DNA of 5,696 nt from a virus (Duplodnaviria > Heunggongvirae > Uroviricota > Caudoviricetes), in the IMG/VR virus record IMGVR_UViG_2706794691_000016. The stretch is one strand, 5' to 3'. The position numbers and the translations under genes are program-made. Positions within the stretch are counted from its first letter, which is position 1; each line of letters begins with the position of its first letter. The notes beneath the pieces were generated by a model that saw nothing but the letters and a program-made list of their open reading frames with translations, ran no database searches and was not told where the DNA came from. Of the stretch, positions 709 to 5,208 are shown piece by piece.

Positions 709-1127
709 AGCCAGTATGTAATCAATCAGAAAGCCGCTCCATAAGAACAACAGCAAGACAATAAATTGCCATTACAGCCGCAATAGCCAGCGCACATTTG
801 AGAACCAGCACGACAACCCCCTGTATTAGACGCACACCAGTCCTGATAAATATGAGGCTGTCTCGTCAGTGATTCAATACAACTATTGGGTATAGTTTCT
901 GTGATTTTATTCTGTAGAAATGGAACACAACAACCAGTCACCACCAGCACTTCCTTAAATGCTCTAAGTCAGAAACAAGCCAACATTTTAGTCCGCTTTG
1001 AGCGATCTGCAGACATTGCTAGCAGCCTTCTGTGTGAATTCTCAGGGAGCAGGTCGGCATAGCATCACGTTGAGGCTCTTACCCTACTTGTTCACACCAA
1101 CCCTAACTCCACAGACTGATTCATAAA

Positions 1128-2024
1128 TTAGTAATCTGCGTGTTTCGCACTTTTCAGAAATGCTTTCATATTTTCATTAGGTCGCTCAATTTCGAAGTTA
1201 CTTCCATATAACTCTTGTAATTTTGGCCATAACTTACTTAATAACCCTCTCCTGCGATAAAATGGATGTATCCAAACGGTAGATAGGTACGGAGAATTTG
1301 CATTTGAATTGTTTATTGTGACCAGCCCAACTAAACATTGTCGATAACCACTATTATCCATTGATTGTATTTCTTCGACGAATGGATACGCGATTACATC
1401 AGTCCAACCATGATCGGTTGTATCCCATTGCATTCCGTCATGACATTCCTTCGACTGATAGCGGCGTAAAGCTACACACGCGAGCTTTTGCCAATCTGGA
1501 GAATTAATTGTGATCTCTTCATCGTATGACGCGCCTATTGGAGCGGGTATTGGTCTGATTAATCCAGCATGGCATTCATCATAGAACTTCATGNNNNNNN
1601 NNNNNNNNNNNNNNNNNNNNNNNNNNNNNNNNNNNNNNNNNNNNNNNNNNNNNNNNNNNNNNNNNNNNNNNNNNNNNNNNNNNNNNNNNNNNNNNNNNNN
1701 NNNNNNNNNNNNNNNNNNNNNNNNTCTTAAGAGTTTAATTAAGTTAATACAAGCTTCTTCACTAGTCTTGCCGTTGATGCGAAGTATGTTAGGACTAAAG
1801 TAATATTCATCCATATCAGGGAATGCAGCTTCGCAAAACTCCTGTACATAATTTAGCACCTGGATTCTACAGAGATCATCATAGCTGGTAATAACTAAGG
1901 GGGTATCTTCATTACTATTATGATTATCAATAATGCAATCTATAGCGAGACTTACTGCTTTGCGTATCACTTCAGTTGAATCTAACGACTCTAAAAATTT
2001 TGTCTTTCGTGTGCGAATATCCAT
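1128..2024 (-). CDS. Hypothetical protein P3 (298 aa) with a GNAT-acetyltransferase-like C-terminal region and an unrecognised N-terminal region
   Basis: Single open frame on both sides of the 1594-1724 mask. ATG at 2024-2022 with an AGGT SD-like element 4 nt upstream, starting 15 nt after the P2 stop. C-terminus ...VWIHPFYRRRGLLSKLW...NENMKAFLKSAKH resembles GNAT motif A and the C-terminal N..A..FY.K motif by eye only. Two ECH-G motifs (DECHAG, KECHDG) about 43 residues apart. Confidence 0.7.
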   Translation of the reverse strand: MDIRTRKTKFLESLDSTEVIRKAVSLAIDCIIDNHNSNEDTPLVITSYDDLCRIQVLNYVQEFCEAAFPDMDEYYFSPNILRINGKTSEEACINLIKLLRXXXXXXXXXXXXXXXXXXXXXXXXXXXXXXXXXXXXXXXXXXXXMKFYDECHAGLIRPIPAPIGASYDEEITINSPDWQKLACVALRRYQSKECHDGMQWDTTDHGWTDVIAYPFVEEIQSMDNSGYRQCLVGLVTINNSNANSPYLSTVWIHPFYRRRGLLSKLWPKLQELYGSNFEIERPNENMKAFLKSAKHADY

Positions 2025-2039
2025 GTATGACCTGCGCTA

Positions 2040-2602
2040 TTAAAATTCATGAATGAACGGTTTGTCATCTGGTTGCAAAATGGTGGTTTTATTCGTTGCT
2101 ACATTTAAACTGTTGTAGAGCATAATTGCCAGGTTCGATGCATTTTCAATCAGCGTTTCAAGATCCTGGTCTGTAATCACTACGAGGTTCCCTTCTTTAT
2201 CCTTTCCACCACGATGCACTAAGTGATTTCGATTGAGGGTTGCCAATTCAATAGCTTCTATCGGACAGTCTTTTTGTACTTTTATATCGAATGTAGCTTC
2301 ATAGCGGTCGATTACCTTTTTAGTGCTATGCCAGCTTGCACTGATCAAGTGTTCCTTGATTGACCTGATTAGCTCTCCCCTAATTTTCTCGATGGGTTCA
2401 CCCTTGAAAGGCAACGCAGCAATATCTTTGCTTACTTTAAATTCAGTCTTACCTTTTTCTATACAATTGGCTATGTAGACATCATCTTTCTCTATAGAAT
2501 TAATGAATAGCTCAACATAAAGCGTTTCCAAAGCTGTAATAACATTCGTGTAGAGCAAACTAAGCAAGTGGTTTTTTTGCTGTTGTTCAGTTTTATCTTT
2601 TG
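2040..2602 (-). CDS. Hypothetical protein P2, C-terminal 186 aa visible, containing a candidate HEPN-type Rx4H motif (RNHLVH, codons at 2214-2231)
   Basis: 186-codon open frame in AT-rich DNA ending at TAA 2040-2042; the N-terminus is inside the 2603-2852 mask. Motif context ...ELATLNRNHLVHRGG... fits the R-[N]-x3-H signature of HEPN RNases. The family call is a motif-level inference only. Confidence 0.65.
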
Positions 2603-2852
2603 NNNNNNNNNNNNNNNNNNNNNNNNNNNNNNNNNNNNNNNNNNNNNNNNNNNNNNNNNNNNNNNNNNNNNNNNNNNNNNNNNNNNNNNNNNNNNNNNNN
2701 NNNNNNNNNNNNNNNNNNNNNNNNNNNNNNNNNNNNNNNNNNNNNNNNNNNNNNNNNNNNNNNNNNNNNNNNNNNNNNNNNNNNNNNNNNNNNNNNNNNN
2801 NNNNNNNNNNNNNNNNNNNNNNNNNNNNNNNNNNNNNNNNNNNNNNNNNNNN

Positions 2853-3072
2853 CATAGCCACCTTCTCTACTTTCATACGGACAAGCATTTGCCGGATCTT
2901 CAAAGTTTTCAAAGAACCAGTTTTTCATTACTTCGAGTTGATCTTTTTTGCTTATGTATTTTAAAGATTTTAGTGGAACTTTCTTTCCATTAACCTCGAA
3001 AACAATTTTCACGATGTAACGCTCCCTTGTATCAATTGCGCAACTATTATACCACAGCGAAATACAGGGCAT
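2853..3072 (-). CDS. Hypothetical small protein P1 (N-terminal 73 aa visible; 3' end within or just past the 2603-2852 mask)
   Basis: ATG at 3072-3070 preceded by AAGGAGG with a 6-nt spacer. Translation MPCISLWYNSCAIDTRERYIVKIVFEVNGKKVPLKSLKYISKKDQLEVMKNWFFENFEDPANACPYESREGGY. Under a length-preserving mask it is in a different frame from P2, so it is either a separate upstream gene or there is a frameshift. The first visible in-frame stop is at 2593. Confidence 0.5.
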
Positions 3073-3110: not shown

Positions 3111-3136
3111 TGTCCGCTATTGGCACAAAGCGGACA
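3111..3136 (-). promoter_or_regulatory. Perfect 8-bp inverted repeat TGTCCGCT-N10-AGCGGACA upstream of P1, next to a TTGACA hexamer on the coding strand; candidate operator or promoter element
   Basis: Seen in sequence in the 137-nt gap between the gene Y stop (3211) and the P1 start (3072). The function is inferred. Confidence 0.25.
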
Positions 3137-3642: not shown

Positions 3643-4203
3643 TCACTTTTCCGACACAATACGACTGGAGGAATCGACAATCTGTCGGACAATATCCCGG
3701 TGCTTGTTCAGCTCCCGCAGCGCGGCGCAGACTCGCTCCCACTTCTGGACATGATTTTTCGCCCGACGCAGTTCGCGGTTTGCCATATGCAGCGATGGTA
3801 AAACTAGGTCATCCGCTTGCGTTTCAGTAAACGATGGCAGCGACTGCACAATGTCCGCCACAGTTTCTGTTTTAATATCTTCCTGTGTTGCCGCTTCCTG
3901 TACTGGTAACGCAACACCGGCTGGCTGAGGAANNNNNNNNNNNNNNNNNNNNNNNNNNNNNNNNNNNNNNNNNNNNNNNNNNNNNNNNNNNNNNNNNNNN
4001 NNNNNNNNNNNNNNNNNNNNNNNNNNNNNNNNNNNNNNNNNNNNNNNNNNNNNNNNNNNNNNNNNNNNNNNNNNNNNNNNNNNNNNNNNNNNNNNNNNNN
4101 NNNNNNNNNNNNNNNNNNNNNNNNNNNNNNNNNNNNNNNNNNNNNNNNNNNNNNNNNNNNNNNNNNNNNNNNNNNNNNNNNNTTCCGGCAGTTCTGCCTG
4201 CAT
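3643..4203 (-). CDS. Hypothetical prophage protein X (C-terminal 96 aa visible; start at or upstream of 4203)
   Basis: Open frame ending at TGA 3645-3643, 15 nt before the gene Y start. Visible C-terminus ...LHMANRELRRAKNHVQKWERVCAALRELNKHRDIVRQIVDSSSRIVSEK. An ATG (MQAELPE) sits at 4203-4201 but the frame stays open upstream into the mask, so the true start is unknown. Confidence 0.55.
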   Translation of the reverse strand: MQAELPEXXXXXXXXXXXXXXXXXXXXXXXXXXXXXXXXXXXXXXXXXXXXXXXXXXXXXXXXXXXXXXXXXXXXXXXXXXXXXXXXXXXXPQPAGVALPVQEAATQEDIKTETVADIVQSLPSFTETQADDLVLPSLHMANRELRRAKNHVQKWERVCAALRELNKHRDIVRQIVDSSSRIVSEK

Positions 4204-4476
4204 TGGCTGTTCCTGCTGAACGTNNNNNNNNNNNNNNNNNNNNNNNNNNNNNNNNNNNNNNNNNNNNNNNNNNNNNNNNNNNNNNNNNNNNNNNNNNNNN
4301 NNNNNNNNNNNNNNNNNNNNNNNNNNNNNNNNNNNNNNNNNNNNNNNNNNNNNNNNNNNNNNNNNNNNNNNNNNNNNNNNNNNNNNNNNNNNNNNNNNNN
4401 NNNNNNNNNNNNNNNNNNNNNNNNNNNNNNNNNNNNNNNNNNNNNNNNNNNNNNNNNNNNNNNNNNNNNNNNNAAT

Positions 4477-5208
4477 TCACCCATCGNNNNNNNNNNNNNN
4501 NNNNNNNNNNNNNNNNNNNNNNNNNNNNNNNNNNNNNNNNNNNNNNNNNNNNNNNNNNNNNNNNNNNNNNNNNNNNNNNNNNNNNNNNNNNNNNNNNNNN
4601 NNNNNNNNNNNNNNNNNNNNNNNNNNNNNNNNNNNNNNNNNNNNNNNNNNNNNNNNNNNNNNNNNNNNNNNNNNNNNNNNNNNNNNNNNNNNNNNNNNNN
4701 NNNNNNNNNNNNNNNNNNNNNNNNNNNNNNNNNNNNNNNNGATAGCTGCCGCTAAGTGATTCTTCCCGGTACCAGGTTTTCCGCTGAACGCAAAATTTGT
4801 ACACCCGGTCATCAGTTCATCGGCGATGGATTTCGCCTGGCTTAACGCGTATCGCTGGCCGTCGTTCTGCACCTGGTAATTCGCAAACGAGCATTTACGG
4901 TGCAACGGCTGGATGCCTGAGCGATTCAGAATTTTTTCCACCCGCAACTGGCGATTNNNNNNNNNNNNNNNNNNNNNNNNNNNNNNNNNNNNNNNNNNNN
5001 NNNNNNNNNNNNNNNNNNNNNNNNNNNNNNNNNNNNNNNNNNNNNNNNNNNNNNNNNNNNNNNNNNNNNNNNNNNNNNNNNNNNNNNNNNNNNNNNNNNN
5101 NNNNNNNNNNNNNNNNNNNNNNNNNNNNNNNNNNNNNNNNNNNNNNNNNNNNNNNNNNNNNNNNNNNNNNNNNNNNNNNNNNNNNNNNNNNNNNNNNNNN
5201 NNNNNNNN
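4477..5208 (-). CDS. DnaC-like (IstB/AAA+) replicative helicase loader of a prophage replication module
   Basis: Visible segment 4741-4956 translates to NRQLRVEKILNRSGIQPLHRKCSFANYQVQNDGQRYALSQAKSIADELMTGCTNFAFSGKPGTGKNHLAAAI. This closely parallels E. coli DnaC as I recall it (FNRSGIRPLHQNCSFENYRV...FIFSGKPGTGKNHLAAAI), including the Walker A motif. Both ends are masked: 4477 is the first visible in-frame stop, which would make the C-terminus about 38 aa shorter than E. coli DnaC, and the start is somewhere in 4957-5208. Confidence 0.75.
   Translation of the reverse strand, partial: XXXXXXXXXXXXXXXXXXXXXXXXXXXXXXXXXXXXXXXXXXXXXXXXXXXXXXXXXXXXXXXXXXXXXXXXXXXXXXXXXXXXNRQLRVEKILNRSGIQPLHRKCSFANYQVQNDGQRYALSQAKSIADELMTGCTNFAFSGKPGTGKNHLAAAIXXXXXXXXXXXXXXXXXXXXXXXXXXXXXXXXXXXXXXXXXXXXXXXXXXXXXXXXXXXXXXXXXXXXXXXXXXXXXXXXXXXXXDG

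Follow-up and report, generated by a model that had tools for sequence, protein, structure and literature searches.

A two-domain protein with a truncated GNAT-fold module, encoded beside a predicted HEPN ribonuclease in a Rac-like prophage of Escherichia coli, as a candidate defence component

The stretch of DNA discussed here, which is referred to as the window (5,696 nucleotides (nt) from the IMG/VR virus record IMGVR_UViG_2706794691_000016, Caudoviricetes), is part of a lambdoid, Rac-like prophage of Escherichia coli. In the interval from its replication module to the Nin/hok region, this prophage carries a cassette of two genes on the minus strand: the target gene of this study (1128..2024), whose product of 333 amino acids (aa) is deposited as WP_000354966.1 and belongs to PHROG 16994 (annotated function unknown), and, upstream of it, a gene for a 320-aa HEPN-type predicted ribonuclease (RNase; WP_014639476.1; 2040..3012, with a GTG start at 3010-3012). 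A spacer of 15 nt (2025..2039, minus strand) runs from the HEPN stop codon to the start of the target. The target is, with very high confidence, a two-domain protein consisting of an N-terminal domain and a minimal GNAT-fold module and, as it is inherited together with the HEPN gene and its homologues neighbour anti-phage defence genes, it is a candidate new prophage-borne defence component.

Reading the window is complicated by runs of N (322-571, 1594-1724, 2603-2852, 3933-4182, 4224-4473, 4487-4740, and 4957-5208) which do not preserve length; hence, lengths and frames read across them are unreliable. The 131 N at 1594-1724 fall within the target gene, where they conceal aa 101-179 and stand for 236 nt in the identical relative E. 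coli FORC_081, a shortfall of 105 nt. The length of 298 aa given in the original prediction is, thus, a masking artefact, and the reading frame survives across the run by chance since 105 is a multiple of three; the real gene comprises 1,002 nt and encodes 333 aa. Outside the N run, the target DNA is 100% identical to that of FORC_081, in which WP_000354966.1 is annotated as a “hypothetical protein”, and this region is equally identical in 200-odd complete E. coli genomes. What the original prediction had read directly from the letters—the open reading frame (ORF) at 1128..2024 on the minus strand with its C-terminal sequence VWIHPFYRRRGLLSKLW...NENMKAFLKSAKH and the two motifs DECHAG and KECHDG—is all present in the window.

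That the target gene is real is evident from its homologues, its mode of evolution and its predicted structure. The homologues form 66 protein clusters that reach down to 35-39% identity, are almost all 327-347 aa long and align end to end; they span Enterobacterales, Aeromonas, Shewanella, Marinomonas, Idiomarina and relatives. The gene shows a ratio of nonsynonymous to synonymous substitution rates (dN/dS) of 0.02-0.40, and the AlphaFold2 model is confident (predicted local distance difference test, pLDDT, 88.4; predicted template modelling score, pTM, 0.82). Residue conservation was assessed on 34 aligned full-length homologues, all of which keep the two-domain architecture of the 333-aa type, and, for a family of stand-alone relatives, on 25 proteins. 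A few members of the target family are named “GNAT family N-acetyltransferase” by the Prokaryotic Genome Annotation Pipeline (PGAP).

The GNAT-fold module covers aa 181-333 (1131..1589, minus strand). In the AlphaFold2 model, it is composed of α1 (aa 212-229), β2 (245-255), β3 (262-273), β4 (281-287), α3 (289-308), β5 (313-314), and α4 (319-327), and it possesses a mixed β-sheet core whose β4-α3-β5-α4 succession is superposable on solved GNAT structures, with sequence identities of 9-17%. A hidden Markov model (HMM) search of 1.84 billion representatives returned a handful of full-length relatives and, in larger number, stand-alone proteins 150-180 aa long, which match profile positions ~181-331 with E-values of 1e-37 to 1e-10. 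Because the module is found as stand-alone proteins, the evolutionary unit is aa ~181-333 and not the last 70 residues; the GNAT-like C-terminus proposed originally is supported by the model as to its fold, while its extent grows from roughly 70 to ~150 aa. Among the stand-alone relatives, 6/25 match Acetyltransf_1 (best E 5e-6), and in PDB sequences the stand-alone profile matches the small GNAT RibT (E 0.002) with the whole core aligned. Three single-protein scans of IMG/VR for more stand-alone relatives found nothing, and a degenerate motif-A DNA pattern retrieved from the same database only known E. coli contigs and three chance matches; the BFVD viral structures yielded nothing but generic GNAT matches (E 1e-3 or weaker), none of them a full-length relative of the target.

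Eight proteins of 437-568 aa (P0113, P0122, P0124, P0125, P0127, P0128, P0133, and P0144) match profile positions 278-331, i.e., the motif A/B region only, with their extreme C-terminus. No Pfam domains were detected in them, and they may represent additional cases in which a truncated GNAT of this kind is joined to a different N-terminal region.

The acyl-coenzyme A (CoA)-binding signature of GNATs has its counterpart in the motif A region, aa 285-301 (V-W-I-H-P-F-Y-R-R-R-G-L-L-S-K-L-W; 1227..1277, minus strand), where W286, H288, P289, and R292 are invariant in 34/34 full-length homologues and R292-x-x-G295-x-L297 stands at the place of the canonical Q/R-x-x-G-x-G/A. Helix α4 carries a motif B-like sequence, P-N-x-N-M-x-A-F-L (aa 317-325; 1155..1181, minus strand), with invariant M321 and F324. 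Residues conserved in the full-length as well as in the stand-alone family are S210, W213, R223, E228, W242, G268, L282, W286, H288, P289, R292, W301, P317, and M321. In GNATs, the N-terminal half normally defines the acceptor site and is the most variable part of the protein; here, however, this half is the best-conserved part of the module, with I-R-P, G199, D203, I-T, S210-P-x-W213-Q-K, R222-R223-Y, and E228.

A conserved segment of the same half, I-R-P..G...IT..SP.WQ(K/R)......RRY (aa ~190-226, at window ~1452-1562, corresponding to positions 8-51 in the profile of alignment A3), gave weak matches to chains of ribosomal protein bS18 in PDB, the protein that the GNAT RimI modifies. These matches, which are all mutually homologous, have E-values of about 0.1, are not significant and are probably due to chance.

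Both “ECH” motifs, which had been assigned to an unknown N-terminal region, fall within the C-terminal module (aa ~181-333). DECHAG (aa 184-189; 1563..1580, minus strand) is situated at the C-terminal end of helix 175-187, and KECHDG (aa 227-232; 1434..1451, minus strand) at the C-terminal end of the GNAT helix α1. As to the conservation of their residues, E185 and E228 are invariant in 34/34 full-length homologues and C229 is kept in 33/34, as is G232, whereas C186 is replaced by Ala in 17/34 and His is present at positions 187 and 230 in only 7/34 and 6/34, respectively. In the stand-alone relatives, E228 is the only nearly invariant ECH residue (24/25), with C229 found in 13/25. Judging by these alignments, the ECH motifs do not form a Cys/His site that is conserved; what is deeply conserved is the acidic residue which ends α1, in the portion by which GNATs usually shape their acceptor site. 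As a separate observation, in E. coli SF-173 (L103, NZ_CP012631.1, 1501-3279) an IS1 element is inserted into the target at about aa 187, i.e., at the boundary between the N-terminal domain and the GNAT module, leaving a 149-aa C-terminal fragment that is equivalent to the stand-alone family and is named “GNAT family N-acetyltransferase” by PGAP.

The N-terminal ~165 aa, of which aa 1-100 are visible in the window (1725..2024, minus strand), adopt an α/β fold in the model that is closest to ASCE P-loop NTPase cores, with an ASCE-type core present; its structural neighbours include ORC/Cdc6/DnaA/RFC. A Walker A motif (GxxxxGK[ST]) is absent, since β1 (aa 43-47, LVITS) enters helix 50-67 via the two-residue loop Y-D; such a two-residue loop is present in every homologue, and in none of them is a Gly-rich loop or a Lys found at this position. 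Invariant residues of the domain are I28, D29, C30, N34, R100, D110, P119, R135, and N138, of which D110 occupies the Walker-B-like end of strand 106-109. Independent relatives of this domain were represented in the HMM search of 1.84 billion representatives only by entries of 45-146 aa, most of them fragment-like. The only match of these profiles among PDB sequences, a weak one to radical-SAM proteins (E 0.09 with the full-length and 0.03 with the N-domain profile), was attributed to chance, given that nothing in the target corresponds to the aligned CxxxCxxC region. Taken from fold and alignment, the N-terminal domain is read as a degenerate, probably non-hydrolysing NTPase-like domain that is specific to this family.

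The gene upstream of the target is partly concealed by the N run at 2603-2852 and measures 973 nt in the window versus 963 nt in the relative; since the run misstates the length, its frame is broken in the window, and ORF lists give two false ORFs instead. Precomputed matches to PF18735 (HEPN_RiboL-PSP) and PF18870 (HEPN_RES_NTD1) are found on many of its homologues, while the query itself scores E 1.9e-4 with PF18870, which is below the cut-off. Its Rx4H motif (R-N-H-L-V-H; 2214..2231, minus strand) has the Arg and the final His invariant in an alignment of 25 homologues that extends down to 26% identity, and the protein is, hence, classified as an HEPN-type predicted RNase. A search of PADLOC-DB v2.0.0 with this protein gave noise-level matches only (E 0.009 or weaker).

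Co-inheritance of the two genes was assessed on 26 viral and 43 metagenomic loci. Where target homologues share 73-96% identity, HEPN is located immediately upstream in 23/27 assessable loci, the spacer is kept at 14-15 nt in almost every paired locus, and both genes diverge in step (target from 100 to 78%, HEPN from 100 to 83%). The idea of chance, recent neighbours, an impression gained from 12 genome loci, was rejected on the basis of this co-divergence and of the fixed spacer across the 43 metagenome loci. The cassette occurs in different elements—besides the Rac-like prophage, in an Aeromonas relaxase island next to SIR2+cREC and in Serratia grimesii next to McrBC—and among complete E. 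coli genomes the target is present in 209/5,426 and HEPN likewise in 209/5,426, including UTI89, NU14 and the type strain ATCC 11775. In UTI89 (NC_007946.1), HEPN occupies 1397505-1398467, and the target adjoins it after the 15-nt spacer. The cassette was also encountered, at 100% protein identity to E. coli, in a 3.3-kb contig of a “Collinsella sp.” metagenome-assembled genome (L004, JAIHTM010000277.1); this contig almost certainly stems from E. coli and was mis-binned into an actinobacterial genome.

Such an arrangement recalls HEPN-MNT pairs, which are type VII toxin-antitoxin systems with an enzyme as antitoxin: MNT AMPylates its HEPN partner. Common to both are the two-gene operon and the combination of an Rx4-6H HEPN protein with a partner of small-molecule-transferase fold; in the present cassette, however, the partner has a GNAT fold and is not a minimal nucleotidyltransferase, the HEPN gene lies upstream and bears an HEPN/RES-NTD1 domain, and each gene survives without the other. 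One might envisage an enzymatic, type VII-like antitoxin, where the HEPN RNase would be the toxin and the GNAT protein would neutralise it by acetylation. This would suit the co-diverging operon with its 15-nt spacer fixed across genera and element types, the higher conservation of HEPN as compared to its partner, and the invariant Rx4H, by which HEPN is probably an active RNase. It would also suit four solo target loci (~86% identity), in which ~100 nt from upstream of the HEPN start are fused to the final 42-64 nt of the HEPN reading frame while the spacer and an intact target gene are retained; as there are two different junctions among them, HEPN has been deleted at least twice, each time with an intact orphan GNAT gene left behind. 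The HEPN-deletion derivatives have then spread to other contexts, among them a CP4-like island and a P4-like satellite. The target of this solo clade, however, is under strong purifying selection (dN/dS 0.02-0.06). Moreover, E. coli SF-173 has an identical, intact HEPN protein despite its IS1-split target gene, HEPN homologues often occur as solo genes (those of up to 75% identity, at the edges of prophages and islands), and target homologues at 62% identity or less are never found beside HEPN, although their full architecture is kept. Conversely, IS1 truncates HEPN in E. coli AHB12, and the target there is intact. The two genes are, thus, mutually dispensable; an obligate toxin-antitoxin pair is rejected in view of these natural knock-outs, and the type VII-like antitoxin, when both sides are weighed, is unlikely.

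At 62% identity or less, target homologues are instead accompanied by recognisable anti-phage defence genes, which counts in favour of a role in defence. Found beside them are a PDC-S06/PrrC-like AAA_13 gene (43 nt downstream, E 1.7e-137), HerA (E 1e-176), a PD-T4-5/AbiD-like gene and, 14 nt downstream, a ThsA-like SIR2 gene (E 1.2e-19), and their contexts include an integrative and conjugative element (DUF4400). In marine gammaproteobacteria (L013 7051-7872, L095 3199-4020, and L086 1163-1966), genes for proteins of 267-273 aa follow 36-45 nt downstream of the target homologue; two of these proteins are 77% identical to each other, none has a Pfam, PHROG or PADLOC match, and they may be alternative partners of the target homologues.

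The presence of predicted RNA/tRNA-targeting effectors (HEPN, PrrC-like) next to the target gene or its homologues in several loci touches upon the proposal from which this analysis started, i.e., a GNAT toxin of atypical architecture that acetylates aminoacyl-tRNA. AtaT, TacT, ItaT, and KacT are GNAT toxins of type II toxin-antitoxin systems. The target resembles them in its GNAT fold and its location on mobile elements, and the Arg/Lys/Trp-rich, conserved N-terminal half of its module could conceivably bind RNA; hence, a classical toxin of this type with an extra N-terminal domain was considered. The known toxins, however, are single-domain proteins of ~170-180 aa, whereas the target has two domains and 333 aa and is stable as a lone gene, kept intact under purifying selection without a fixed partner. 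A small ribbon-helix-helix (RHH)/DUF1778-type antitoxin gene adjoins neither the target nor its homologues in any of the neighbourhoods examined—the upstream gene is the 320-aa HEPN gene—and no antitoxin accompanies the stand-alone relatives that reside in replication modules of phages or satellites. When PDB sequences were searched by profile (E up to 10 with alignment A2, up to 1 with alignment A3), no AtaT or TacT chain was recovered. A classical type II GNAT toxin is, accordingly, very improbable, and the toxin proposal does not hold in its original form.

In our preferred reading, to which we assign a probability of roughly 40%, the target is an acyl-CoA-dependent acyltransferase, or an acyl-CoA-binding module, that operates in conflicts between mobile elements and phages. 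Enzymatic activity, acceptor substrate, the role of the N-terminal domain and the defence phenotype are what we infer, along the following lines. The GNAT module would bind or use acyl-CoA via the retained β4-α3 motif and would modify a conserved macromolecular target; the latter is proposed because the usually variable, acceptor-defining half of the GNAT is the best-conserved one here. The N-terminal domain, lacking Walker A, might serve for sensing, regulation or targeting. In the Enterobacterales/Aeromonas clade, the protein, encoded in an operon with a solo-type HEPN RNase, would probably modulate or complement that effector. It would be functionally autonomous, neither a classical toxin nor an obligate antitoxin, and would not be needed to render HEPN harmless. 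A more elaborate version of this proposal, which we consider rather doubtful, takes the target as the conserved sensor/regulator or second effector of an undescribed modular anti-phage system whose effectors would have been swapped, with marine gammaproteobacteria having SIR2, PrrC-like or unknown genes where Enterobacterales and Aeromonas have the HEPN RNase; the NTPase-like domain would then couple phage sensing to a GNAT that acetylates a target in the translation apparatus or the neighbouring effector.

Several observations weigh against the preferred reading, the first group of which concerns the integrity of the GNAT module. The target chain ends six residues after helix 319-327, so that β6 and β7 are absent, and the stand-alone relatives terminate at the same point. 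In the CoA loop, G295 is kept in 27/34 homologues and replaced by R/K/Q in 7/34, while the last position is always L/M/I (L297 in the target) instead of Gly/Ala. The position of the general-acid Tyr in motif B, as assigned by motif reading and not by structural superposition, is taken by Leu/Met/Ile/Val. Regarding profiles, PF00583 (Acetyltransf_1) scores 19.9 bits on the target, below the gathering threshold of 20.7, and the GNAT fold that is clear from the model is, thus, not matched by a significant Pfam hit. Given the Leu in the CoA loop, the G295 replacements, the hydrophobic Tyr position and the missing strands, the GNAT domain could be catalytically dead. These features speak for a pseudo-enzyme or CoA sensor, in which the truncated GNAT fold would play a regulatory part by binding (acyl-)CoA or a partner, in the manner of PanZ/PanM; the very small GNATs PanZ and RibT are, indeed, among the structural and profile matches. 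On the other hand, the invariance of W286, H288, P289, and R292 in the CoA loop and the conservation of E228 at the end of α1 (invariant in the full-length family, kept in 24/25 stand-alone relatives) fit a preserved active site, and small GNATs such as RibT align across the whole core. A pseudo-enzyme is, on balance, a rather unlikely solution.

The second group relates to context. Stand-alone relatives of ~160 aa overlap the stop codon of a primase gene (phrog_3022/DUF3987) in two unrelated contigs, another one is located after a DUF3631 gene in an AlpA-type island, and a full-length homologue sits after a P4 alpha-like primase-helicase; relatives beside such primase-type genes are found at L016 2691-4483, L050 536-3420, L133 1621-4474, and L037 2352-6002. 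The translational coupling of stand-alone relatives to primase genes hints at a replication-linked role. A further stand-alone relative follows chromosomal dnaG-rpoD, with no mobile-element or defence gene among the called neighbours. Furthermore, guilt by association does not separate defence from counter-defence or other cargo functions. A replication-linked or counter-defence accessory factor, which would act on the replication or defence machinery of its own or of a rival element, was also weighed. The position of the window cassette after the replication module and the ORC/Cdc6/DnaA/RFC-like neighbours of the N-terminal fold are in line with it; however, the post-replication position is where lambdoid prophages and satellites usually carry cargo, in a slot that is variable here, many homologues have no replication gene nearby, and the family is absent from the 50,697 deposited phage genomes. 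We regard this alternative as decidedly unlikely. The same absence—no DNA or protein match to the target family in those genomes—also speaks against the preferred reading, as do the lack of any matching PADLOC-DB v2.0.0 family for the target protein (0 families at E up to 1) and a literature search by accession and keyword that yielded no paper on the target family and none on an HEPN+GNAT system.

Among known proteins, the closest group to the target module are small GNATs, i.e., RibT (5xxr), SSAT2/thialysine acetyltransferase, the histone acetyltransferase (HAT) domain of Gcn5, RimI, AAC(3), and PanZ. The target differs from these in lacking β6/β7, in the Leu at the last motif A position and the hydrophobic residue at the motif B Tyr position, in the unusual conservation of the N-terminal half of its module (IRP..G..D..IT..SP.WQK....RRY...EC.DG) and in the fusion to a ~165-aa N-terminal domain. 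The RNA cytidine acetyltransferases TmcA/NAT10 likewise combine a P-loop domain, that of a helicase, with a GNAT domain; the target, however, is much smaller and without Walker A, matches none of the TmcA/NAT10 Pfam families, and retrieves NAT10 as one among hundreds of generic ASCE matches, outside the top 60 matches for the full model. For the neighbouring HEPN gene, the nearest functional precedent, by analogy, is HepS, the “HEPN solo” protein of the Gifsy-1 prophage, which is a self-sufficient abortive-infection protein with Rx4-6H and no obligatory partner (PMC13043305). The two are likened by description—HEPN proteins as accessory cargo of lambdoid prophages—and not by homology; in contrast to HepS, the neighbour possesses HEPN/RES-NTD1 plus a RiboL-PSP-type HEPN domain and has, in this clade, a co-inherited GNAT-fold gene downstream.

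While the GNAT superfamily itself is known, a truncated subfamily of it that shares a chain with a novel NTPase-like domain and has a link with an HEPN gene is new. Should the cassette be a defence module, acetylation chemistry tied to an HEPN RNase would join the prophage-encoded immune repertoire, and a new GNAT subfamily without the C-terminal strands would be defined. The cassette is present in well-studied extraintestinal pathogenic E. coli strains (UTI89, NU14, and ATCC 11775) and in about 4% of complete E. coli genomes, and natural variants (two HEPN deletions and IS1 in either gene) offer ready-made genetic controls. If it does not serve defence, the record is still corrected with regard to the length of the protein (333 aa), the size of the GNAT module (150 instead of 70 aa) and the “ECH” motifs, which are not Cys/His sites.

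Regarding signals around the cassette, a candidate extended -10 element (TGgTATAAT; 3046..3054, minus strand) lies 33 nt upstream of the HEPN GTG; it is a consensus match only, is missed by a two-hexamer promoter scan, and the promoter/terminator scan as a whole did not exceed the shuffled expectation. The candidate -10 region is retained in 3/4 HEPN-deleted loci, and the spacer even at loci where the HEPN ORF is deleted. Rfam searches gave no RNA family within or around the cassette. The HEPN GTG is preceded, at a distance of about 100 nt, by an inverted repeat (TCCGCT-N10-AGCGGA; 3113-3134, minus strand), which is kept in the paired loci and in 3/4 HEPN-deleted loci, with L037 showing a substitution in both arms; this repeat might act as an operator or else terminate the gene before it.

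The slot which accommodates the cassette is variable: the same flanks carry other cargo in other E. coli prophages. In L136 (NZ_CP106924.1) and L137 (NZ_CP049967.1), the place equivalent to window 1128-3012 is occupied by alternative cargo, namely an AAA family ATPase together with a 325-aa hypothetical protein, or a hypothetical protein together with a class I S-adenosylmethionine (SAM) methyltransferase. The slot acts as an accessory-gene hotspot. Just downstream of the target, a segment of ~300 nt (window ~710-1010) recurs with 88-95% identity in 1,758/5,426 complete E. coli genomes, in which it is never annotated. It has no Rfam match and overlaps an ORF for a 74-aa Cys-rich protein (726-950, minus strand) that has no Pfam match. 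In other prophages, hokD lies 200-500 nt downstream of this segment, which borders the variable cargo slot and may be a conserved boundary of it for regulation or recombination.

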